NCBI GenBank assembly: GCA_028868715.1
Contig: JAGWUB010000001.1
Location: forward strand, 183,206-247,205
Origin: Patescibacteria group bacterium
GTDB taxonomy: Bacteria > Patescibacteriota > Minisyncoccia > Phycocordibacterales > UBA9973
DNA: 64,000 nucleotides
Direction of reading: 5' to 3'
Shown: positions 32,506 through 43,129 of the stretch, piece by piece
How the letters are laid out: each line of letters starts with the position of its first letter
How positions within the stretch are numbered: position 1 is the stretch's first letter
The notes under the pieces: model-generated
Databases searched by the model: none
What the model was told of the DNA's origin: nothing
What the model saw: only the letters and a program-made list of their open reading frames with translations
Translations under genes and position numbers: made by a program

Positions 32506-32951
32506 ATTCTTTTTTAAAAAATGCGGAGTCTGGTGGACGATGTTAGAACCTATTGGCAGACCACTGCGGACAGGTTTTTCATCCCCAGACTGTCATTAGA
32601 GTCAGCACAGATAGTATAGTATTTTCTGGTCTATTCAGTACAGTCCTGTACTGGTACATACCTACCAACAGTAGCACCCGTGCAACTTTTGACATATACG
32701 TGTCATATCATTGTCAGGGTGTCTTTTTGGGTCAAAGACAGTGTGCTTACTATATCCTGTTATAGCTCGGCATAACCGAATCACCGATTTTACTACGAGA
32801 GTTATACAGAAGCATACAAAAGGGCGTACTCCCGTCTCTCTTGCCCTCAATTTTGTGAAAACTGGGAATGGGTGGTGGGTGTTTTCCTTTTGACTTTTGC
32901 GCGGGCGGCGGGGACACCCTCTCCAAGTTGAGCCTTTTTACCCGAAAACTT

Positions 32952-35546
32952 TTATGCCTGGCGAACTGCTATGTCTTTTATCTGCTGAATGTCGGTTTTG
33001 AGTTTGGCGATGTCTGGTGCTGCGTGCTGAACCATCTCATCGGATTGATTATGTGCCTCTATGTACCTGCTGAACTCTTCGTGTAGTTGTTTCGCTTTAT
33101 CCAGCTTTTCACGACTCAAGCTCGCGCGGGTAGCGTTGTGCATCTGAATCTGGTCAGACCAGCGCGTAATAACTCTGCCGAAGATTCTTTCTTCAACCGC
33201 TTTCTCGACCGCTCTACGTAACATCCCGTAGGTGCCTCTGATGCCGTCCGCTTGAGCTTCGCCAGTGAGAGTTTCAAGCTCAAGAACTTTTGCCTCAACT
33301 TTTTGAATGTAAGCATCGAACTTTACCGAACCAGGATAGTAGTTTTGTGTTACCACACCGACTCTGGCGGCTTCCGAATGAAGGTCGTGAAAGGCGGCTT
33401 TGGCTGGGTCAATGTTTCCGTCATTGTTTTCAACCTGGTCGTGAAGATAACTCGCAAACATCAAGTCGTGAGTGAAAACCACAATCTGCCGCGCTTCGGA
33501 TTCTTGTACGATTCTTTTTGCGATTCTCTCTTTTCTGTCGTGGTCAAAACTTGTAGCGGGGTCATCGAAAATCACTGGTGCGTGCTCGGTTTGCATTGAA
33601 AGCTCGGCAAAGAAATCCGAGAGGGCGACGGCTTTCTGTTCTCCCTCGCTCAAGAATTGGTCTATGCCGTCCAACCCTTCCATATTCTTTGCCCGCATCT
33701 GCGAGCCGTACTCTCCGCGAAACTCAAGATTGACTCCTGGCGCGTCGAGGTCTGCCGCTTCTTTTTGAAACTGTGCTTTGAACGAATCGGATACCAATTC
33801 ACGCCAGGCTTTCTTGCCCAGGTCGGTTGTCGGCTTCGTGTTGAGTTTGTTTGCCTGCAATGGAGATGCCTTTTCTATCCACCGCTCGATTGCGATGTAC
33901 TTCTCGACTTGTGGTCGGTGTTTTGAAAACTTTTGAATGTCTTGCAGCTCCGCTATTTCCTTATCGAGTGCCTGGGACTTTTTGAAAAGGTTGCGTTGCG
34001 ACTCTTCAAGGGTTTTTATGTCCGCTTCAACTTTAGCTCTCGCTTTGCGGATGCTGGAGATAATGCCAGAGGTTTTTACTGGTTGGAACTTCTGCGGCTT
34101 CTTGTTTTTCAAAGAAGATGCCACTTTTTGAGCCAAGCTGTCAGCCTCGGTCAATGCGGCGAATGCGGTAGCGACCGTTCGCTTCTGCAAAAACTTTTCA
34201 AAATCTTCCTGTCCGTATGGAAAGTCGTCTGCAAAGGAGGAGTTCTCCAAATCGTTCAGTGCCCCGTTGAGTTTCTCCTCAACATCTTCAATGTCGGATG
34301 TTTCTTCTTCTTGGAAAAGTTCTCGGTAAAGCTGAATGAGTTTCTGTGCTCCTTTCGAGAGTTTCTGCTGGCAGTATATGCAGCGGTCATCGTCTCCTGG
34401 GTATTCGTCGTGCTCGGCGATGCGGATGTAATCCTCTCCAGCATCAATAAACTTTTCCCACTCGTCCGATTCCTTTTCCGCTATGTCGTAATCCTCAAGA
34501 GTCTTGCCCTTCTTTACTGCTTGCTTCTTTTTGAGCTGGGCAAACTTTTTTACCAAGCCGAAATACACTCTGATGTTTTGAGCGGACAAGTCGGACTGTA
34601 CTTGCGCAAGGGCATCTTCCAACGCCTTGAGTTTTTGGTTTCGCGTTCGCAGAATCTCCGACTGTTGGTCGAGATTTTGTAGTCCTTTCCTTTCTTTTGT
34701 TTTATCCGTAAGAGCTTTTTGCGCTTTTGCATCCCAGGCTGGAAGTTTATTCAAATCATCCGATTTTGTACTTGCCGTTATTCCTGCAACAAACTTTCCG
34801 ATTGAAGTTTCCTCATTGAAAATGTCGTCAATCAAAGGCTTGTCGTTCGCGGTATTCCTGATGTCTTCCGCCAGACGTTCTTGCAGCCCCTGCATTGACG
34901 TTGAGAGAGCCTGGAACAGCTCGAAGCCGTAGGGCTGGTAGGAGAAGCCGAGACTTTTATTCAAATAGATTGGGATGCACTTTCCGTCGAAAACCGCCAT
35001 CTGGTCAAAGGGAGCAAGTCTGCTTTCGCCACTCCATTGGCAGACAGTATCGGTGGCACCATTCGCATATTGTATTTTCGCTTTGCAGCGATTTTGAGAT
35101 TTTGTGCTGTGGACATTTTGCCATACGTCTTCCTGCGTTCTTGAGCCAGCAACTCTTTTGAGTATTCGTACAAAACCAGACTTGCCGCTTCCGTTCTTGC
35201 CATACACGACCGTCAGCTTCGGATGAAATGGAATCGTCGCCCCACGTTCAAGCGCATTCACACCGCTTTCGTGCTGCAAACTTTTGAGCGCAAATCCGTT
35301 CGTAGCAGCGGTTCTTTGAGCGGGTACGATTGGCGCTGCTGGCTCTGCTTCTCCAGCTTTCTTTTCCTGCAACTTGTGAACGATTAGAAACTGCTTGTAG
35401 ATTTCGTCGAGGAACGCTTCATCTGGAATCGCACGCGACAACAAAACCCTTCCGATAAGGGACTTGAGCCATTCTTCGCCGCTCTGATTTGCCAGCTCTT
35501 GCAGGTAATCATCGGCTTTCAGTTTTTTGCTTGTTGTCATAGTCAT
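32952..35546 (-). CDS. Large ABC-type ATPase with coiled-coil CxxC zinc hook and extra C-terminal domain (RloC/PrrC-like anticodon-nuclease candidate)
   Basis: Walker A 'GKNGSGKS' near residue 117, a long coiled coil and 'DDDRCIYCQQ' at mid-protein. Signature 'LSEGEQ', Walker B 'VIFDDP' and H-loop 'FTHD'. A C-terminal domain of about 185 aa carries an R-x3-E...H pattern. Confidence 0.5.
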   Translation of the reverse strand: MTMTTSKKLKADDYLQELANQSGEEWLKSLIGRVLLSRAIPDEAFLDEIYKQFLIVHKLQEKKAGEAEPAAPIVPAQRTAATNGFALKSLQHESGVNALERGATIPFHPKLTVVYGKNGSGKSGFVRILKRVAGSRTQEDVWQNVHSTKSQNRCKAKIQYANGATDTVCQWSGESRLAPFDQMAVFDGKCIPIYLNKSLGFSYQPYGFELFQALSTSMQGLQERLAEDIRNTANDKPLIDDIFNEETSIGKFVAGITASTKSDDLNKLPAWDAKAQKALTDKTKERKGLQNLDQQSEILRTRNQKLKALEDALAQVQSDLSAQNIRVYFGLVKKFAQLKKKQAVKKGKTLEDYDIAEKESDEWEKFIDAGEDYIRIAEHDEYPGDDDRCIYCQQKLSKGAQKLIQLYRELFQEEETSDIEDVEEKLNGALNDLENSSFADDFPYGQEDFEKFLQKRTVATAFAALTEADSLAQKVASSLKNKKPQKFQPVKTSGIISSIRKARAKVEADIKTLEESQRNLFKKSQALDKEIAELQDIQKFSKHRPQVEKYIAIERWIEKASPLQANKLNTKPTTDLGKKAWRELVSDSFKAQFQKEAADLDAPGVNLEFRGEYGSQMRAKNMEGLDGIDQFLSEGEQKAVALSDFFAELSMQTEHAPVIFDDPATSFDHDRKERIAKRIVQESEARQIVVFTHDLMFASYLHDQVENNDGNIDPAKAAFHDLHSEAARVGVVTQNYYPGSVKFDAYIQKVEAKVLELETLTGEAQADGIRGTYGMLRRAVEKAVEERIFGRVITRWSDQIQMHNATRASLSREKLDKAKQLHEEFSRYIEAHNQSDEMVQHAAPDIAKLKTDIQQIKDIAVRQA

Positions 35547-35569
35547 TTTGTATCTTCATAGTCGGGATT

Positions 35570-35974
35570 CTACTTTATCAATCGGCTCACTTTGCTCGTA
35601 ACTTTTTCGGGGTGTTTTTTTATGAACGACCCCCAAAACCTTACCACTTTGTACCCTTGTTTCTTGAGTATCCTGTTTTGCTTTTTGTCCCGCTCAATGT
35701 TCGCAGCTATTTTCACTTTCCAAAACGGCGGCACTTTGCCGACCCAATGTTGAAAATCCTTCCCGTGCCAGAAGTCTCCATCCGCGAAAATGGCAATCTT
35801 ACTTTTTGGAAAAACAATGTCTGGTTTTCCAGGAAGATTCTTTACGTTTTTTCTGTATCGTTCCGTACCCCAAAACACTTTGATGCACTTCGTCAGATGC
35901 GCCTCAATGTCTGTCTTCGAGCTTTTGACTCGGGACATTATGTCGCTTCTTTTTGTTTTGGTGAAAATGTCCAT
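35570..35974 (-). CDS. vsr: Very short patch repair endonuclease
   Basis: 'RSDIMSRVKS', 'LPGKPDIVFP' and 'IFADGDFWHG' Vsr motifs. Confidence 0.85.
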   Translation of the reverse strand: MDIFTKTKRSDIMSRVKSSKTDIEAHLTKCIKVFWGTERYRKNVKNLPGKPDIVFPKSKIAIFADGDFWHGKDFQHWVGKVPPFWKVKIAANIERDKKQNRILKKQGYKVVRFWGSFIKKHPEKVTSKVSRLIK

Positions 35975-35980
35975 CGCGCA

Positions 35981-37060
35981 TCATTTTATGAACCTTATTT
36001 GAAGGGTTAGCTTGATAAAAAGAGAATCATTTTCCTGGTAGACTTTTCCGAATCCGTAACGAGTGGTGCTCGGCGTATCAAAGCGTGTGTTTTTGAACAG
36101 ATATGCCCTAAAAGCGTCCGCGTTGTATACGTGATAACAAACCATCTCCCCATCTTCGCGGACTATGATGTAACCGCCGTGCGCTCGCAAAAGACCGTCC
36201 CAGGCGGTATCGGGAACCATACCGAGAGCCACGTTGTGAAGAAGACTTTTTACTTTGAACTCATAGTCGGAGCGGTCGAGGTCGAAACTCAAAATGTTGG
36301 TTTCACCATTTCCGAGGTTTGCTATCAGTTCTGGCAAACCAGAACCTTTACCGAGATAAAAAGCCAGCAATAACTGCGCGACAATTTCTGGGAGAACCGT
36401 ATCAACGCGCCGAAGATTTCTGGTGAAAGTATCCGAGCTGATGCCATAGTATGAAAAACTGCCACCAGCGGCGACAATCGCGGAAAGTCTGTCTCTTACT
36501 TTCGAGCGGGTATCAATGGCGTTTATTTTCGCAATTTGTTCTTCGCTCAAACCTTCAATCTTGTAGACAAAGTTTGTAGCTGCGGAAGGATTCAGCAACG
36601 TAGACGCGGCACCCAGCATTGATTTGATACTGAAACCGACTTCTGGTTCGGTGCCAGTAACGTGGTCGTGAATCTTCAACGTGATGTCTTCTTTTCTGGC
36701 ATTGCCAGCATTCAATCGGGTAGCGTGGAAACGAGTCATCAAAGAATCCGCTACTGGAATCGAAAAAGTTGACTCGGCACCGTCTCTTATCGCTTGGAAA
36801 ACCTCTACAACTTTTGTTTTCAAATCGGAGCTATCAACGAGTGCTACTTCCGTACCAGCCTGGATGATTTTCACCTTGTTGTCTTCGACGAACTCATAAT
36901 CCATTCTGCCAGCCGCTTCCTCTCTGATGATTTTCAGCACAGGATAGAATATGTCCTGAATCTTCTGGAGATTTTCGTCAGCACCATTGAGCTGCTTTTC
37001 CGCAAGCAGTTTGATGAAAGTGTAGAACTCGCTCCATTCTCCTTTGTTTCCTTTTATCAT
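35981..37060 (-). CDS. Type II restriction endonuclease (partner of adjacent C5-MTase; HpaII-like family suspected)
   Basis: 359 aa. Its start overlaps the MTase stop by 4 bp (ATGA). It sits between a C5-MTase and vsr, and the family assignment comes from recall only. Confidence 0.45.
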   Translation of the reverse strand: MIKGNKGEWSEFYTFIKLLAEKQLNGADENLQKIQDIFYPVLKIIREEAAGRMDYEFVEDNKVKIIQAGTEVALVDSSDLKTKVVEVFQAIRDGAESTFSIPVADSLMTRFHATRLNAGNARKEDITLKIHDHVTGTEPEVGFSIKSMLGAASTLLNPSAATNFVYKIEGLSEEQIAKINAIDTRSKVRDRLSAIVAAGGSFSYYGISSDTFTRNLRRVDTVLPEIVAQLLLAFYLGKGSGLPELIANLGNGETNILSFDLDRSDYEFKVKSLLHNVALGMVPDTAWDGLLRAHGGYIIVREDGEMVCYHVYNADAFRAYLFKNTRFDTPSTTRYGFGKVYQENDSLFIKLTLQIRFIK

Positions 37061-37941
37061 AGTAGTTGAAGTGATTTTACTATCTGTGCGGCAGTCGCCT
37101 GAATGGCGGGAACCGCGACCGCGTTTCCAAGCTGTTTCATTGCCTGGACATCCGATACGGGAAAAACAAAACTGGCTGGGAAGCCCATCATCTTCCTGCC
37201 TTCTTTCGGAGAAAGTCTACGAACCTTTCCGTCCACCATATAGGCGTCCCAATTCCTTCTGTCTTTTATGTCCGAGCCTCTTCCTCCGACCCGCAGAGTG
37301 TATCCGATTGTTTTTTCAGCTTTCCCGCCGAATATGTCGGACATTGTTTTCGTCAACTTCACGGGCTTGGGGAACTCGAAGGGTGTGTTTTTATTCTTGA
37401 ATCCGACCATAAAAAGCCGTGCACGGTGCTGTGGCACACCGTGGTCGGAAGCTCGAACTATCTGGTAGTGAAATGAGTAATCCAAGTCTTCCTCAATGAT
37501 TCTTTTTATTGTTGCGAATGTTTTACCGTCATCGTGTTTGAAGAGATGACTCACGTTTTCCAGGAAAAAGGCATCGGGTTTTTTCTCTTTGATAATCCTT
37601 ACGATGTCGTGAAATAACGTACCCCTTGAATCGGCAAACCCTTTTTTGAATCCCGCATTGCTGAACGGTTGGCAAGGAAAACCAGCGGTTAGGATATGAA
37701 AATCGGGAATCTTCTTTGCATCCACTTTGGTTATGTCTCCTGCAAAGTTTCCGTTTTTGAAAATCTCTGGTTCCACTTTTTTGAAATTGGCTTCGTAAGT
37801 TTTCCGTGCGCGGTCATCCCATTCGCTCACGAAAACACACTGCCCGCCGAGGTTATGAAAAGCCAGATGAAAACCGCCTATTCCAGCGAATAGGTCTATG
37901 AAGGTGAACTTTGGTTTTGATTGTCTTTTTGTCATAGTCAT
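37057..37941 (-). CDS. dcm: DNA (cytosine-5)-methyltransferase
   Basis: Motif I 'FAGIGG', motif IV 'PCQPFS', 'ENV', and a late 'LGNAV' motif. Confidence 0.85.
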   Translation of the reverse strand: MTMTKRQSKPKFTFIDLFAGIGGFHLAFHNLGGQCVFVSEWDDRARKTYEANFKKVEPEIFKNGNFAGDITKVDAKKIPDFHILTAGFPCQPFSNAGFKKGFADSRGTLFHDIVRIIKEKKPDAFFLENVSHLFKHDDGKTFATIKRIIEEDLDYSFHYQIVRASDHGVPQHRARLFMVGFKNKNTPFEFPKPVKLTKTMSDIFGGKAEKTIGYTLRVGGRGSDIKDRRNWDAYMVDGKVRRLSPKEGRKMMGFPASFVFPVSDVQAMKQLGNAVAVPAIQATAAQIVKSLQLL

Positions 37942-37954
37942 TGTTTATGGAGAG

Positions 37955-38131
37955 TTACTTTTTCGGTTCGCTCCTACCGTGTTTCAAGAAGTCTTTTACG
38001 TCCTGGTCGGTAAAGCGCCACTTACCGCGCTTTGAACCCTTGAGCCAACCCTTTTGTAGATACCGAAACAGCGTTCTTTCTTTCACGCCGAGTATCTTCT
38101 CCAAGTCTTGCAGTGTGTAGGTTTTTATCAT
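37955..38131 (-). CDS. Small helix-turn-helix DNA-binding protein (excisionase/AlpA-type HTH_17; possible controller of the R-M operon)
   Basis: 58 aa reading 'MIKTYTLQDLEKILGVKERTLFRYLQKGWLKGSKRGKWRFTDQDVKDFLKHG'. Not in the ORF track because it is shorter than 60 aa. Confidence 0.55.
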   Translation of the reverse strand: MIKTYTLQDLEKILGVKERTLFRYLQKGWLKGSKRGKWRFTDQDVKDFLKHGRSEPKK

Positions 38132-38208
38132 AAAAGTTTTGACTTGATGATGTCTTTATTCTACACTGGAGGTAAGAATAAGGCAACTTTTGACAGGGTG
38201 CCTTATCA

Positions 38209-38871
38209 ATGACAATGATTATGAACGACAAACTCACAAAAGTTATCGGCTTGATTCAGGAGGGACTAAAATACAGCGATGCCGAAGACAATCGGGTATC
38301 GGAAGACGGCGTGCAAGATTACGGAATTGATAAGGTTGAGCTGTACGAGGATACGCTTCGCTCGGCAGGACTATCGAGAGAAGACATTTACGGAATCTTG
38401 AAGAATCTTCGGAATGATGGAGTAATAAAACTCCAGCAGGTATTTTACGCTCCAGAACGAACACCCTCAAACTACGAGAATAGACCGAGATACAAAGTTC
38501 CAGCCGACGATGAGTACAAATTGCCAGTCTATGTTTTGCATATCAACCGAGAGAAATTGCAGCCCTCAAACTCAAACGAACCCTTCTCCTTTGACGCAGA
38601 GACTGGGCTGCTGCACTTTCAAGGTAAAACGTGCGAGTTGCCCCTCAAGCAATTTGAATACTACGTAATCAAGGCTTTGACTGCTCAACCAATCGGTAAG
38701 CACGTAGAGGAAGCAGACATCGAAGAGATAATTGATGCGCTCGGAGCGGACGGCAGCAAGTCGAGGGTCTATGACACGCGCCGCCGCATCAACAAACGAG
38801 TGAAAGAAGAATTGGGTATTGAAAACTTGGTTGGTTATTCAAACTCAACTTATTGGATAAACCAACCTTGA
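38209..38871 (+). CDS. Hypothetical protein with C-terminal OmpR/PhoB-type winged-helix
   Basis: C-terminal '...SRVYDTRRRINKRVKEELGIENLVGYSNSTYWIN'. Confidence 0.4.
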   Translation: MTMIMNDKLTKVIGLIQEGLKYSDAEDNRVSEDGVQDYGIDKVELYEDTLRSAGLSREDIYGILKNLRNDGVIKLQQVFYAPERTPSNYENRPRYKVPADDEYKLPVYVLHINREKLQPSNSNEPFSFDAETGLLHFQGKTCELPLKQFEYYVIKALTAQPIGKHVEEADIEEIIDALGADGSKSRVYDTRRRINKRVKEELGIENLVGYSNSTYWINQP

Positions 38872-38961
38872 GTAAAATCCGACTCGGAATGAGTCGGTAA
38901 GTTTCCATAGTCATAGGAATAGGCTTGAAGAAAGCCTGTTTTTATTTTGGCTTGAAAAGTT

Positions 38962-39216
38962 ATGACGATGACTGGAAACAATACAAGTGATTCGTTCCGC
39001 ACCGCAGACCTCTCACTGGTCGCGGCACTTTGCGTTTCTGGTTTTGTCGTAGAAGAGATGGAGAGAGTAAGTCCTACTCGGTCGGTCTTCATCTTCCAAA
39101 GCTCCGCCGAGCTGCACGAAACAGAGAAACGTTACTGGCGGGGAGATTTACGAATTGAGCCGCAAGCCTTCTTCAACCAACTCAAAATCTTGAAGGCGCG
39201 CATCTACGAGCGATGA
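38962..39216 (+). CDS. Small hypothetical protein (DUF5659-like pattern)
   Basis: 84 aa with a 'FRTADLSLVAALCVSGF...IFQSSAEL' pattern, recognised from recall only. Confidence 0.35.
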   Translation: MTMTGNNTSDSFRTADLSLVAALCVSGFVVEEMERVSPTRSVFIFQSSAELHETEKRYWRGDLRIEPQAFFNQLKILKARIYER

Positions 39217-39369
39217 TTTCCGAACAAGCAATAAAGGATTTCAAAGCCATCTGGAAAAAACAGTTTGGCGAAGAGATTTCGGATGAAAAAGCAACCGAAG
39301 AGGCTTTGAACTTTTTGCGCTTTCTCGACATCATCTATCGCCCTGTTCGTAAACAATGGGTCGAAGACT

Positions 39370-40311
39370 ATGACAATGGAACACATCGGCGACAACCTAA
39401 AAAAGTATAGTTTTGAGCAACCTGCGTCCCGACCGCAGGAAAGTTCAAAAAAGGAACCTGCAAAGGAGCCTTTTATTCCTTTTCCGCGTTTTCTGGTGGA
39501 GCATTACCGTAACCACCTCATAACCTATCGTGAGCTTGAGCTACATAACTGGATGCGACTTCACGCCAATATGTTCGGCATTGCGAGCGTAAATGTGCAC
39601 GCGATGCTTGATGATTTGCCGCACTTCAAAAGCGTTGACCGCATCACAAAAGTATTGAGGTCGCTGCGCCGCAAGAAGTACATACACTACCAGGAGCGAA
39701 AGGGACGCCGAGGTACATTCGAGGTGCGATTTGACCATTGGCTGCTAAAAGGCGGCAAAGTTCAGACTCTCGATAGATACTTTGAGCAGGAGAAAGTCCG
39801 AGGTGAAAGCGGAACCAAAGCCACAGGTGCAGCGGAAGCAACACCGTCTTTTAGTGGTCAAAGTCCGAGGTTGAACGAGCAGGAACACCCCGTAAATACG
39901 GGGGCAAACTCTTTTATGAACAACCGCTTTGTCCGAGGTGATAAGAACGATAATAAGATTGAAACAAAAGAAATAAAGACATCTTCGTCGTCGAGCACTT
40001 TTAGGGGGGAAGCAAAAGGAAGCAGAGTGGCAACTCGCGACTTTGTGCCACAATCCGACGCCGAAGAACGATGCAAACGAATCGCGATTGAAGTCGGCGA
40101 CGAGTACATCAATTTTATTTTGAGCAAGTTGAAACACAAGGACGGCGGCATTGAAGTTATTGAGAATGCGTTTCAAGCCTACCAAGATGTTTTGCGAATC
40201 GCCGAAGAGAAGGGCGACATTGAACCGATAAAAAACCTTCCCGCCTTTTTCAATAGGTGCGTCAAAGACGCCATAGAGGAAAACCAGATGAAAAAGTCTG
40301 GCAGATGGTAA
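39370..40311 (+). CDS. Hypothetical protein (possible winged-helix replication/DNA-binding protein)
   Basis: 313 aa with an N-terminal wH-like segment 'ITYRELELHNWMRLHANMFGIASV'. Confidence 0.35.
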   Translation: MTMEHIGDNLKKYSFEQPASRPQESSKKEPAKEPFIPFPRFLVEHYRNHLITYRELELHNWMRLHANMFGIASVNVHAMLDDLPHFKSVDRITKVLRSLRRKKYIHYQERKGRRGTFEVRFDHWLLKGGKVQTLDRYFEQEKVRGESGTKATGAAEATPSFSGQSPRLNEQEHPVNTGANSFMNNRFVRGDKNDNKIETKEIKTSSSSSTFRGEAKGSRVATRDFVPQSDAEERCKRIAIEVGDEYINFILSKLKHKDGGIEVIENAFQAYQDVLRIAEEKGDIEPIKNLPAFFNRCVKDAIEENQMKKSGRW

Positions 40312-40315
40312 CGAT

Positions 40316-41167
40316 ATGGAACTAAAGGCAATCAATCCGACTATACACACTTACCCCCTTGTCAGGTTATTACAGGGTGCTATAATGACTATGCGTCCTA
40401 CAAGTTTGAATATGTGCACAGGGTATTTGCCTTTTTATGGCTCCAATTGCGGGCTGAAAGGGGCGACTACCTCTCCACAATTGGTTGCCTTGTGCAATTC
40501 AATCTTGTGGGACGCAGAGCTCTGGTCGTCCCTTTTTGATTTTAGTGGGACGGTCAGAGAAAGAATGACTATGTCCCACTTATTGAATAAAGTTATCAAG
40601 TTTTTCAAAGAGAGCTATTCTCCGAAGTTGAGAAGAGTTCTCTTTGGGATTCTTATTTTAGGATTGGCAGGAATCTGGTTTGTTGGCAGCTATCAGCACT
40701 CAACGATTGACTCACGCATTGCAGAACGTAAAACGCAGATTGGGCAAGAACGTGAACGAAAAGAAATCGGAGCGCAACAATACTACGACGATTGCCTGCA
40801 AAGAGAATCAACAAAACCGAAAGGACAATTTTATTTCTCTCCCTGCTTCCATCCAACACTTCTGCCGCTTGAGACGGAATACCAGTACGACAAACAACTT
40901 CGCGGACTTGGAGATTTGAAAAACAATCTTGAGTCGGGATTCTTCTACTTCGTTTTTCTCCTATGTCTTGCCGCACTCACCATCGCCATACCAGTAGTGC
41001 GATTACTCTGGCTTCTGGGTAAACTTTCGTGGAGTAAAAGCAAAATAGCAACAGCCTCATTGCGTTCGGAGTCAGCGCAGATGTCGAGTTTCCAGAAATA
41101 CTCACTCGTCTTGTCGGCACTCATTTTGATTGCGCTCATAACGATGATTTTGATTTTGCTTACATAA
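40316..41167 (+). CDS. Hypothetical membrane protein (true start possibly internal Met ~40568)
   Basis: TM helices near residues 105-125 and 225-245 and at the C-terminus. Two internal MTM starts. Confidence 0.3.
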   Translation: MELKAINPTIHTYPLVRLLQGAIMTMRPTSLNMCTGYLPFYGSNCGLKGATTSPQLVALCNSILWDAELWSSLFDFSGTVRERMTMSHLLNKVIKFFKESYSPKLRRVLFGILILGLAGIWFVGSYQHSTIDSRIAERKTQIGQERERKEIGAQQYYDDCLQRESTKPKGQFYFSPCFHPTLLPLETEYQYDKQLRGLGDLKNNLESGFFYFVFLLCLAALTIAIPVVRLLWLLGKLSWSKSKIATASLRSESAQMSSFQKYSLVLSALILIALITMILILLT

Positions 41168-41278
41168 AACTATGAAAAAACAAACTGCAAAAACCAAATC
41201 AAAGAAAAAGCCGCGCAAGGATAAGAGTGCGGAGATTCAAGTCGTCTTCTTTGCGAAGCATCCCAAGAATCCAAAACT

Positions 41279-43039
41279 ATGAACAGAGCATCTGAACAAT
41301 CACGAATAAAGTTCATCGCTTACAGCCGAAAAAGCACGGAGAGCGAAGACCGCCAGGTGCTCTCTTTGAATGACCAGAAGCGCGAACTTGAAGACGTACA
41401 GGCAAAAGAGAAGCTGCACGTTGTTGAGAAGTATCTCGGAGACAAGATAGGAGAAAGCCAGTCAGCCTATAAGCGCGGCAGACCTATTTTCGGGCACGTA
41501 ATGGAGCAAATAGAGGCTGGCAAAGCCAATGGTTTGCTTGTGTGGCATCCGAACCGCCTTGCACGCAATGCTTTTGATGGTGGTTGGATTATCACGGCAA
41601 TGGACGAAGGAAAGTTGCTGGAGATACGAACTCCGCAGAAGACCTACCATCACGACAATTCCGATGATAAGTTTTTCCTTCAACTTGAGTTCGGAATGGC
41701 AAAGAAGTCATCCGACGACAACAGCACTGCCGTAAAGCGCGGACTGAAAACAAAAGTCGGGATGGGTTGGTATCCGTCATACGCCCCACTCGGCTATCTC
41801 AACACCAAAGACAAAGACCTCAAAGGCAGCAATCATATTCAGATTGACCCAGAACGCTATCAAATTGTTCGTAAGATGTGGGACTTGATGCTCACGGGCA
41901 GATACACACCTCCAGAGATTTTGAGAATGGCAAACAAGCAGTGGAAGTTGAAGACGCGGACATCAAAGAAACGCCCTCTGCCTAAAGAAATGGCACGCAG
42001 TCATATCTATCGCATTTTCACCAACCCGTTTTACTGTGGATGGTTTGAATATGGCAAGCCAGTTCTTCAAGAAGACGGTACGCGACGTAAGCCGTGGTAC
42101 AAAGGCATTCACCAGCCGATGATAACGGTGGAAGAGTACGACCTCGTACAGAAACTTCTCAAAGAGAAAGGACGACCGCGCCCGAAGCGTCATCGTTTCG
42201 CTTTCACTGGTTTGATGCGCTGCGGCAACTGTGGTGCGATGATAACAGCGGAAGAGAAGATAAAGAAACAAAAGAACGGCAACGTGCATCATTACGTTTA
42301 CTATCGCTGCACGAAACGCAAGGATGAAAATTGTCCAGAGAAAACCGTCGAGCTGAAAGAATTGTCCAATCAGATTGATGATGTAATAAAAACAATTACC
42401 GTTTCGGAAGATTTCAAAGACTGGGGACTCCAGTATCTCCACGAAGTCCGCAAGGAAGAAGCAAAGACTCACGAAGCGGTGCAGAGAAGTAAGCAGAACG
42501 ATTCGCTGCGCATCACAAAGCAACTCGACAGCCTGGTGCTCAAGTACGCATCACCAGAGAATGCCAGTGGCGAGATTATCAGCGACATTGAGTTCCAGGG
42601 CTTGAAGAAGCGGTTGCTCGATGAAAAAGCAAGAATCACTAACGAGCTGCAAGAGCAGCACAAGGTGTTTGAGGACTGGCTGGATATGAGCGAGCGCACC
42701 TTCAATTTCGCACGCTACGCGGGTCTGTGGTTCGCCCAGGGCGATATGGAAACGAAGAGAGCCGTATTTGCCTGTCTCGGTTCGCACCTGGTTATTAGCA
42801 GCCAAAAACTCAACGTGCAGCTACGCAAGCCGTTCACTATGGTGTTCAAGAAGCTCGCGGAAGCGGAGAAGGAACTTGCCCAGGTTAGAACCTCTCTTGA
42901 ACCACAAAAAGCAGAAAACGCCCTCATAAAACAAAACAATCTTGCACTTGTCGTGCAAAATTGTTCAAACTGGCGGAGGCGGAGAGATTCGAACTCTCGA
43001 TACCTTTCGGTATGCCACCTTTCCAAGGTGGTGGAATAA
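41279..43039 (+). CDS. Large serine recombinase (integrase)
   Basis: N-terminal 'IAYSRKSTESEDRQVLSLNDQ', a recombinase domain, a Zn ribbon 'CGNCGAM...C' and a C-terminal coiled coil. The last ~23 codons read through the antisense of tRNA-Ser. Confidence 0.8.
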   Translation: MNRASEQSRIKFIAYSRKSTESEDRQVLSLNDQKRELEDVQAKEKLHVVEKYLGDKIGESQSAYKRGRPIFGHVMEQIEAGKANGLLVWHPNRLARNAFDGGWIITAMDEGKLLEIRTPQKTYHHDNSDDKFFLQLEFGMAKKSSDDNSTAVKRGLKTKVGMGWYPSYAPLGYLNTKDKDLKGSNHIQIDPERYQIVRKMWDLMLTGRYTPPEILRMANKQWKLKTRTSKKRPLPKEMARSHIYRIFTNPFYCGWFEYGKPVLQEDGTRRKPWYKGIHQPMITVEEYDLVQKLLKEKGRPRPKRHRFAFTGLMRCGNCGAMITAEEKIKKQKNGNVHHYVYYRCTKRKDENCPEKTVELKELSNQIDDVIKTITVSEDFKDWGLQYLHEVRKEEAKTHEAVQRSKQNDSLRITKQLDSLVLKYASPENASGEIISDIEFQGLKKRLLDEKARITNELQEQHKVFEDWLDMSERTFNFARYAGLWFAQGDMETKRAVFACLGSHLVISSQKLNVQLRKPFTMVFKKLAEAEKELAQVRTSLEPQKAENALIKQNNLALVVQNCSNWRRRRDSNSRYLSVCHLSKVVE

Positions 43040-43058
43040 ACCGCTATCCGACGCCTCC
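42971..43058 (-). tRNA. tRNA-Ser (anticodon GGA), CCA encoded
   Basis: Acceptor GGAGGCG/CGCCTCC. Anticodon arm CCACC-TTGGAAA-GGTGG. Variable arm ATACC-GAAA-GGTAT. T-arm GAGAG-TTCGAAT-CTCTC. Confidence 0.8.
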
Positions 43059-43129
43059 AGTAAACTCCTGCTTATAATCTACATCATTTTAAGTAAAAAG
43101 AAAGTTTTATGCTATGATGATGTATCGTT

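Follow-up and report, generated by a model that had tools for sequence, protein, structure and literature searches.

A candidate two-layer defence operon of type II restriction-modification genes and a long-form RloC-like ATPase on a Patescibacteria island

RloC proteins are recognised by three screening features, namely ABC (ATP-binding cassette) motifs, a CxxC motif in a coiled-coil insert, and an Arg-X3-Glu-X36-52-His pattern in which a Ser often precedes the His, and published members range from 658 to 897 aa (PMC2610378). The Geobacillus kaustophilus protein (GkaRloC) is activated by ATP and DNA and derepressed by zinc-hook mutations (PMC3458546, PMC2610378), the Acinetobacter baylyi protein (AbaRloC) is activated by inducers of double-strand breaks (PMC3874168), and A. 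baylyi hsd mutants leave RloC regulation intact (PMC3874168, PMC3458546). Eight of 72 RloC genes map to restriction-modification (R-M) loci (PMC2610378). Linkage to type II R-M is not unprecedented, because Table S1 of Davidov & Kaufmann (2008) lists RloC neighbours of type II, IIS and Eco57I-like, and PrrC/RloC-type ABC-HEPN genes are described as "often found in R-M operon" as well as in mobile neighbourhoods (Anantharaman et al., 2013). Here, we describe a five-gene operon in a 64,000-nucleotide stretch of contig JAGWUB010000001.1 (assembly GCA_028868715.1, Patescibacteria group bacterium; hereafter the window), in which type II R-M genes are followed by a gene for an 864-aa ATPase of the long-form RloC family. 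On balance, the locus, on a Patescibacteria island, is probably a two-layer operon for defence and addiction, in which restriction would be backed up by an ATPase acting as a suicidal RNase.

The operon and the family of its ATPase

The operon consists of five minus-strand open reading frames (ORFs) with intergenic gaps of 13, -4, 6 and 23 bp in the ORF list (Table 1), the methyltransferase (MTase) and restriction endonuclease (REase) genes sharing the 4-bp overlap and the ATPase gene coming last, 23 bp past vsr. A first-pass annotation of the window had described this packing (gaps of -4 to 23 bp) and read the genes as helix-turn-helix (HTH), C5-MTase, REase, Vsr and ATPase; both stand, the content through matches to HTH_17, DNA_methylase, RE_HpaII and Vsr.

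The 864-aa protein carries GKNGSGKS, CIYC, LSEGEQ, VIFDDP and FTHD, motifs also named in the first pass, all at the expected places. Across an alignment of 33 relatives reaching down to 19% identity, the key residues of Walker A, the signature, Walker B and the H-loop are invariant, as are both hook cysteines, C389 and C392. The AlphaFold (AF2) model (mean predicted local distance difference test score, pLDDT, 83.7) shows, in order, an N-terminal three-helix domain (helices at 11-22, 25-37 and 43-56), an ABC N-lobe, a helical insert of about 400 residues (209-599) that splits the ABC head and has CIYC at its middle, an ABC C-lobe, a beta-hairpin and a helical C-terminal domain.

The best profile is PADLOC PDC-S06 (PDLC04888; E 1.4e-128), with residues 1-860 aligned to profile positions 1-846 of 851. 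Pfam AAA_13 (PF13166), the family of the proteins that the Joint Genome Institute (JGI) calls "wobble nucleotide-excising tRNase", was also passed (55.1 bits, cutoff 36), and SMC_N and AAA_21 were matched as well. BLASTP against Swit_4992, encoded on pSWIT02, gave E 7e-50 over residues 85-827, in an alignment that takes in the R-x3-E helix and R795. Swit_4992 was identified, through its 881-aa size and its carbamoyltransferase neighbour, with YP_001260375 of Sphingomonas wittichii RW1 (881 aa, carbamoyltransferase flank), the entry numbered 30 among the RloC orthologs of Davidov & Kaufmann (2008, Table S1). All three of the 2008 screening features are present in the ATPase, together with homology to a listed ortholog, and on sequence grounds it belongs to the long-form RloC/PDC-S06 family, which is already catalogued.

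PDC-S06 itself corresponds in essence to RloC as broadly defined in 2008, and comprises long sub-models (PDLC04888/91/92/93) as well as short ones, because these are matched by two published RloC orthologs, one long (Swit_4992) and one short (a 746-aa protein of a Shewanella ANA-3 plasmid that adjoins an IS200/IS605 transposase). Long and short clades align by hhalign at 97.1% from the CxxC to the H-loop, with CIYC placed on the CPFC of short RloC. JGI names differ between them, the short clade being called "wobble nucleotide-excising tRNase" and the long clade "ABC-type lipoprotein export ATPase" or "EcfA2". Two further proteins turned out to be long-clade: a Staphylococcus plasmid "AAA family ATPase" (730 aa), considered as a bridge to the short clade, is a truncated long-clade copy, and the Acinetobacter ANC 4805 homologue (857 aa), considered as the 826-aa A. 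baylyi RloC, belongs to the long clade.

It is very unlikely that the protein is a housekeeping SbcC/Rad50 repair ATPase, or a DndD-type protein, that merely lies beside R-M genes. Its head and coiled coil do match Rad50, SMC and RecF in sequence and fold; Foldseek with the whole model returned Rad50, SMC, LmuB and JetC as best matches, and PDB sequence searches with the protein, its full-length profile and its C-domain profile recovered Rad50, SMC, AriA and ABCE1 heads only, with no PrrC/RloC structure and no match to the C-domain. Against such an identity, no SbcD-like gene adjoins the ATPase gene, as the first pass had noted, and no metallophosphoesterase gene lies anywhere on the island; the gene is on a mobile island and its product ends in an additional conserved domain of about 150 residues, and SbcCD/Mre11-Rad50 was rejected. 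The best profiles are PDC-S06 and AAA_13, and no SbcC equivalog, Rad50 or DndD model was matched beyond generic ABC-head similarity in Pfam, PADLOC, NCBIfam and PDB searches, in keeping with the first-pass view that this is no simple SbcC.

Upstream of the ATPase gene, the C5-MTase has motifs I, IV (PCQ), VI (ENV), VIII (QxRxR), IX and X (GNAV) all legible in its translation. The protein is unusually compact, its 294 aa leaving only about 70 residues for target recognition between motifs VIII and IX. With a C5-MTase, an RE_HpaII-family endonuclease and Vsr in one cluster, the three genes form a type II R-M system of HpaII kind with Vsr. Vsr repairs T:G mismatches arising from 5-methylcytosine (5mC) deamination, and MTase-REase-Vsr trios are classical in HpaII-type CCGG systems; going by its family, the REase probably recognises CCGG. 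The 58-aa HTH_17 protein is a probable regulator of the operon. It has a weak MAD1-like match that falls under the NCBIfam cutoff, and homologous HTH_17 genes head the R-M and ATPase operons of two related loci, L004 (39% identity, E 3e-13) and L090 (L090:790-972).

Two sigma-70-like promoter matches lie directly upstream of the HTH gene, and no terminator-like site was found in the 23-bp gap between vsr and the ATPase gene; both are consistent with a single operon, in which the five genes would be transcribed together. The ATPase and MTase genes open with a common 24-nt stretch (35530-35553 and 37925-37948, 88% identical), within which ATGACTATGA is found at these two sites only in the window. 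Further ORFs of the island, at 38209, 38962 and 39370, likewise begin MTM.... The 24-nt stretch may be a shared translation-initiation context or a cassette junction.

Table 1. Features of the operon, the ATPase and the surrounding island (window coordinates)
Feature	Coordinates	Strand	Description or evidence
Integrative island, 10.6 kb	32518..43088	.	GC 0.46 vs 0.37; palindrome-free
Rad50/SMC-like ABC ATPase, zinc-hook coiled coil and helical C-domain	32952..35546	-	864 aa; PADLOC PDC-S06
ATPase N-terminal extension, residues 1-84	35295..35546	-	Three-helix domain with invariant W26, then low-confidence linker; alignment of 33 relatives; AF2
ATPase Walker A GKNGSGKS, residues 116-123	35178..35201	-	G116, N118, G121, K122 invariant
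ATPase zinc-hook motif CIYC, C389/C392	34371..34382	-	Loop between helices 361-376 and 398-411
ATPase ABC signature LSEGEQ, residues 632-637	33636..33653	-	
ATPase Walker B/D-loop VIFDDP, residues 658-663	33558..33575	-	
ATPase H-loop FTHD, residues 691-694 (H693)	33465..33476	-	
ATPase C-terminal domain, residues 715-864	32955..33404	-	Beta-hairpin and helical bundle; predicted RNase (HEPN-like) effector
ATPase putative catalytic set	R777 33216-33218; E781 33204-33206; R795 33162-33164; S826 33069-33071; H832 33051-33053	-	
Vsr very-short-patch-repair endonuclease	35570..35974	-	134 aa; Pfam Vsr 1e-24; TIGR00632 vsr 2e-28, above cutoff
HpaII-family type II restriction endonuclease	35981..37060	-	359 aa; Pfam RE_HpaII 8e-111, full length; PADLOC REase_II 5e-101
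C5 cytosine DNA methyltransferase	37057..37941	-	294 aa; Pfam DNA_methylase 5e-82; PADLOC MTase_II 2e-100; TIGR00675 dcm 2e-82
HTH_17 protein (MerR/excisionase-type DNA-binding)	37955..38131	-	58 aa; Pfam HTH_17 4e-8; first gene of the operon
Two sigma-70-like promoter matches	38127..38186	-	Directly upstream of the HTH gene; consensus matches only
Rest of island: 220 aa, DUF5659 (84 aa), 65 aa, 313 aa, 283-aa membrane protein	38209-41167	+	No or weak family matches
Large serine recombinase	41279..43039	+	586 aa; Pfam Resolvase, Recombinase, Zn_ribbon_recom
tRNA-Ser(GGA)	42971..43058	-	ARAGORN; Rfam 51.7 bits

The C-terminal domain and its proposed activity

About 170 residues lie beyond the H-loop of the ATPase, and the R-x3-E...H pattern that the first pass had seen there is real and no accident of a single sequence. 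Of 231 related C-domains, 228 have R777, 229 E781, 228 R795, 222 S826 and 230 H832 (96-99.6%), and the E-to-H spacing is 48-53; the window protein reads R777-x3-E781-x50-H832, with S826 before the His. In the 33-sequence alignment G730, E781, R795 and H832 are invariant, and R777 and S826 nearly so. The distance from Walker B to the Arg of R-x3-E is 115 residues here and 112 in the ANA-3 protein, next to 120 in GkaRloC (D572 to R692) (PMC2610378, PMC3458546). In the AF2 model the C-domain has a pLDDT of 84.9. This conserved, catalytic-looking motif, its position, and the scaffold common to both clades suggest that the C-domain is an anticodon nuclease.

Several results weigh against that assignment. 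Long and short RloC C-domains gave an hhalign probability of 0.1% (E 0.57), in a comparison whose sensitivity is limited by the shallow short-clade alignment (effective number of sequences, Neff, 2.8). The AAA_13 match covers only profile positions 17-586 of 713. The PADLOC PrrC model, which short RloC matches to position 314 of 372, has no match to the window ATPase and reaches only the Walker B region in two long-clade relatives, and no Pfam family consistently matches 23 C-domains. H832 sits in a low-confidence loop (pLDDT about 44-53), and conservation does not extend to the canonical HEPN R-x4-6-H, as position 827 varies and S826 is the residue kept. Between the long-form C-domain and the RloC/PrrC nuclease, agreement is confined to the motif, its position and the order of secondary-structure elements. 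In the published record, cleavage of tRNA anticodon loops (for RloC, excision of the wobble nucleotide) is experimentally established for GkaRloC and AbaRloC only, and for no long-form member (PMC2610378, PMC3874168, PMC3458546), and several long proteins, of 849-895 aa, have anticodon nuclease (ACNase) triads that Davidov & Kaufmann (2008) flagged as "poor" or "suboptimal". The RloC architecture proposed in the first pass thus holds for the scaffold, the screening motif and the homology to Swit_4992, and lacks a profile-level similarity of the C-domain to the PrrC/RloC nuclease.

Some of these results favour a possible though doubtful alternative, a Rad50-like anti-phage sensor of DNA ends whose C-domain is not homologous to the PrrC/RloC nuclease and is instead another enzyme (a DNase, a general RNase, a nucleotide-directed enzyme or one of another kind) or a module for signalling or partner binding, the R-x3-E...H being convergent or coincidental. 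To the negative comparison with short RloC, the missing PrrC and Pfam matches and the poor triads on the 2008 list can be added a non-specific C-domain fold search, the JGI practice of calling only the short clade a tRNase, and a scaffold that swaps effectors. In P0090, a 697-aa relative, the N-terminal domain, ABC N-lobe and CxxC coiled coil are retained, and a nuclease C-terminus of the REase_MTES_1575/DUF2726 type replaces the ABC C-lobe and the helical C-domain. Since P0090 bears this REase-like C-terminus on the same scaffold, it supports effector swapping, and the C-domain can be read as a swappable effector. On the other side, four to five near-invariant polar residues, such as metal-independent RNases use, stand in RloC order and spacing, at an equal distance from Walker B. 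Homology between the clades is clear in the ABC and zinc-hook parts, which makes a common, rapidly evolving toxin domain the more parsimonious account; between HEPN families, sequence outside the motifs is poorly conserved (Anantharaman et al., 2013).

A divergent third clade (P0088) has RRxxE...S..EH aligned with the window C-domain (70% by hhalign, E 4e-5); against the short clade it reached 3%, with a local match in the MRRxxE helix only. A C-domain profile search of 1.84 billion representatives gave 3,209 matches. The 150 of these listed are either complete proteins of about 860 aa or fragments truncated at the N-terminus, and none has a PrrC-like short architecture.

In the two-layer operon that we favour, the first layer would be the type II R-M system (a Dcm-type C5-MTase and an HpaII-family REase, probably acting at CCGG), with its own Vsr against 5mC deamination and its HTH_17 regulator. 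The second would be the long-form RloC-like ATPase, whose two head lobes are split by a coiled coil that has the CxxC zinc hook at its tip, with a helical C-domain of about 150 residues carrying the R/E/R/S/H set after them. By analogy with the G. kaustophilus and A. baylyi proteins, a zinc-hooked dimer would keep the C-domain silent, and binding of DNA ends with ATP hydrolysis at the head would set it free; such ends could come from phage DNA being cut or not cleared by restriction, or from damaged host DNA. Once free, the C-domain would cleave tRNA anticodon loops as an endoribonuclease that needs no metal, and would so halt translation in an abortive infection response.

Restriction-modification linkage and the carrier island

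Close homologues from the candidate phyla radiation (CPR; 69-93% identity) occupy about eleven distinct contexts, and in five of these an R-M cassette lies immediately upstream, on the strand of the ATPase gene. Next to the HTH_17, Dcm-type MTase, HpaII-family REase and Vsr genes of the window, the cassettes upstream on the same strand are an HTH_3 gene, an EcoRI-methylase-like gene and a GmrSD_N/HNH gene (L001/L097), and an HsdR-like gene with a fused N6-MTase/S gene (L004, L090 and L093); L006 has a Methylase_S remnant. No R-M genes adjoin the ATPase in L003/L099, L005 and L007, which are elements with resolvases or serine recombinases, in L091/L094, in L098, or in L092, where a ThsB-TIR gene is next to it. 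In L093 the ATPase gene is followed in the same gene string by a DUF4357/RAMA (restriction-enzyme adenine-methylase-associated) gene (L093:8605-9465). Elsewhere, a long-form copy in Acinetobacter sp. ANC 4805 lies directly downstream of a type I hsdR (L053:2534-8529), and the short published RloC of the Shewanella ANA-3 plasmid is divergent from a type I hsdM-S-R (L104:10255-20386), in a region that also has QatC/QatD and Abi genes.

Among distant relatives (about 25% identity, 80 species-representative genomes), R-M domains were found by Pfam in only 3-4 of 134 upstream neighbours. This agrees with the published 8 of 72 RloC genes at R-M loci, and it also tells against a two-layer operon. Because distant relatives rarely adjoin R-M genes, R-M linkage is not a property of the whole ATPase family. 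The same Pfam scan found no conserved partner among the 134 upstream neighbours at the 80 GTDB loci, the neighbours being heterogeneous.

The operon could also encode a PrrC-style guard, kept silent by physical contact with the neighbouring R-M enzyme and set free once a phage anti-restriction protein inactivates that enzyme. The final place of the ATPase gene in the R-M operon, the same-strand R-M genes upstream of close homologues and the precedent of PrrC all fit such a guard, which we nevertheless regard as improbable. ATPases that are 75-84% identical sit 3' of R-M cassettes of three types with unrelated structures, and beside other close copies there are no R-M genes, a pattern hard to reconcile with a specific silencing interface; distant relatives are seldom R-M-linked, and RloC has an internal zinc-hook/ATPase switch that hsd mutations in A. 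baylyi do not deregulate. Because nearly identical ATPases follow three unrelated cassettes, coupling of the ATPase to restriction is more likely functional, through DNA ends or through co-regulation and co-transfer, than a specific complex of the PrrC-EcoprrI type, and the ATPase is more likely an autonomous sensor.

A bolder and rather unlikely reading would treat the long-form clade (about 860 aa) as a distinct Rad50-like defence family and not as true RloC, with its own R/E/R/S/H effector and an N-terminal helical sensor. In Patescibacteria it would serve as a portable "restriction amplifier" placed 3' of any R-M cassette (HTH_17-[swappable R-M]-ATPase), turning the DNA ends made by restriction into an abortive-infection signal.

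The mobile element proposed in the first pass is confirmed by a GC content of 0.46 against 0.37 over about 32.5-43 kb and by the serine recombinase gene beside tRNA-Ser. The last ~23 codons of the recombinase gene overlap the opposite-strand tRNA-Ser(GGA), and because the tRNA falls within the palindrome-free stretch, the island is probably integrated at or into the tRNA-Ser gene. A search for att (attachment) direct repeats at the island ends found nothing convincing, as expected for a serine recombinase, and no long repeat at the other end. Genes for replication, for conjugation or for phage structure were not recognised on the island.

The most striking side finding is the complete lack of six 4-bp palindromes on the island. 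CATG, CCGG, CTAG, GATC, GGCC and TTAA occur zero times, with 31.7, 33.4, 10.8, 43.8, 22.9 and 20.6 expected, respectively; the sole counted TTAA, at 32514, is at the island's edge, and the host flanks have about 10 of these sites per kb. This is an extreme avoidance of restriction sites, and it sharply outlines the island's borders. The island is CCGG-free, and its own CCGG-type enzyme would therefore have no target there; because five other 4-bp palindromes are likewise absent, the lack of CCGG is no pointer to CCGG specifically. CATG, CCGG, CTAG, GATC and GGCC are also purged around the ATPase homologue at four loci (L004:1-11310, L090:1-8745, L091:178-8937 and L006:4911-11016). At six others, with ATPases 71-78% identical (L003, L005, L092, L095, L098 and L099), 24-33 such sites lie within the ATPase gene alone. 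Since four loci are purged and six are not, palindrome avoidance is a trait of particular elements and not of the gene family.

Novelty and comparison with known systems

The family is already known: it is in the 2008 RloC list and in PADLOC as PDC-S06, R-M-linked ABC-HEPN genes have been described, and CPR copies are numerous and public. The first-pass annotation was right about a CPR-type host, the identical protein in NCBI (which begins at the second ATG, 862 aa) being labelled Patescibacteria group bacterium, from a metagenome-assembled genome (MAG). Its claim that an element-borne instance in such a host is undescribed was overstated, and the layered arrangement it called unusual looks less so beside the R-M-operon ABC-HEPN genes of Anantharaman et al. 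(2013). It also misstated RloC as usually linked to type I or III R-M; R-M linkage is rare, and the type II, IIS and Eco57I-like neighbours of the 2008 table are among the cases. None of the top-ranked papers of a literature search mentioned RloC alongside Patescibacteria.

If the two-layer operon is real, ultra-small, R-M-rich CPR bacteria would have restriction and its back-up, a self-contained suicidal RNase, travelling together on one 10-kb element. In CPR, the recurring HTH_17-[variable R-M]-ATPase arrangement offers a natural experiment on how an RloC-type sensor is coupled to restriction, pointing to DNA ends and not to a dedicated partner. More broadly, the long-form half of the "RloC" family, with over 3,000 cluster representatives, is misnamed by pipelines as an ABC transporter ATPase, and profile methods give no link between its effector domain and the proven anticodon nuclease. 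PDC-S06 is a large, widespread candidate defence family.

Rad50/SbcC, Lamassu LmuB, Wadjet JetC and PARIS AriA have the head fold and coiled-coil architecture in common with the window ATPase, and its zinc hook is as in Rad50. These proteins have nuclease partner genes (SbcD, LmuA, JetD and AriB), whereas the putative effector of the window ATPase is fused C-terminally. MADS, for which MAD6, MAD7 and MAD8 are mandatory (bioRxiv 10.1101/2023.03.30.534895), was rejected as an identity for the locus, since all three are absent and only weak similarity to MAD1 (the HTH protein) and MAD3 (the ABC head) was seen. HpaII-type R-M systems with Vsr have, by family matches, the same MTase-REase-Vsr trio as the window; here the MTase is unusually short, the operon is headed by HTH_17 and not by an Xre-type C protein, and there is an extra ATPase gene.

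PrrC-EcoprrI of E. coli likewise joins a C-terminal R/E/H domain to an ABC ATPase and has its gene within an R-M locus, and it follows the same logic of a suicidal translation block that backs up restriction. PrrC lacks both a coiled coil and a zinc hook and always occurs with type Ic hsd, whereas the window ATPase has an insert of about 400 residues and type II neighbours; physical association keeps PrrC silent and the phage T4 peptide Stp activates it, whereas close homologues of the window ATPase follow interchangeable R-M types. With its head split by a coiled coil, its type II neighbours and no PrrC model match, the window ATPase was rejected as a PrrC system.

The characterised RloC proteins (G. 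kaustophilus, 804 aa; A. baylyi, 826 aa) and the short clade are closer, with the ABC motifs, zinc-hook coiled coil and AAA_13 of the window ATPase and a C-terminal domain of about 150-160 residues that begins some 112-120 residues past Walker B and likewise has Arg-x3-Glu followed by Ser and His. The short form differs in lacking the N-terminal extension, its protein opening directly with the ABC strand, and in a Glu-to-His spacing of 38-40, which is 50 here. Long-form RloC (Swit_4992; PDC-S06) is closest of all, having in common with the window ATPase the N-terminal extension, the ABC head, the CxxC coiled coil, the R-x3-E...S..H C-domain and the size class (about 850-890 aa), and is also carried on plasmids, islands and integrative elements. 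Between it and the window copy there is no essential difference; the window copy sits in a CPR genome, in a type II R-M/Vsr operon.

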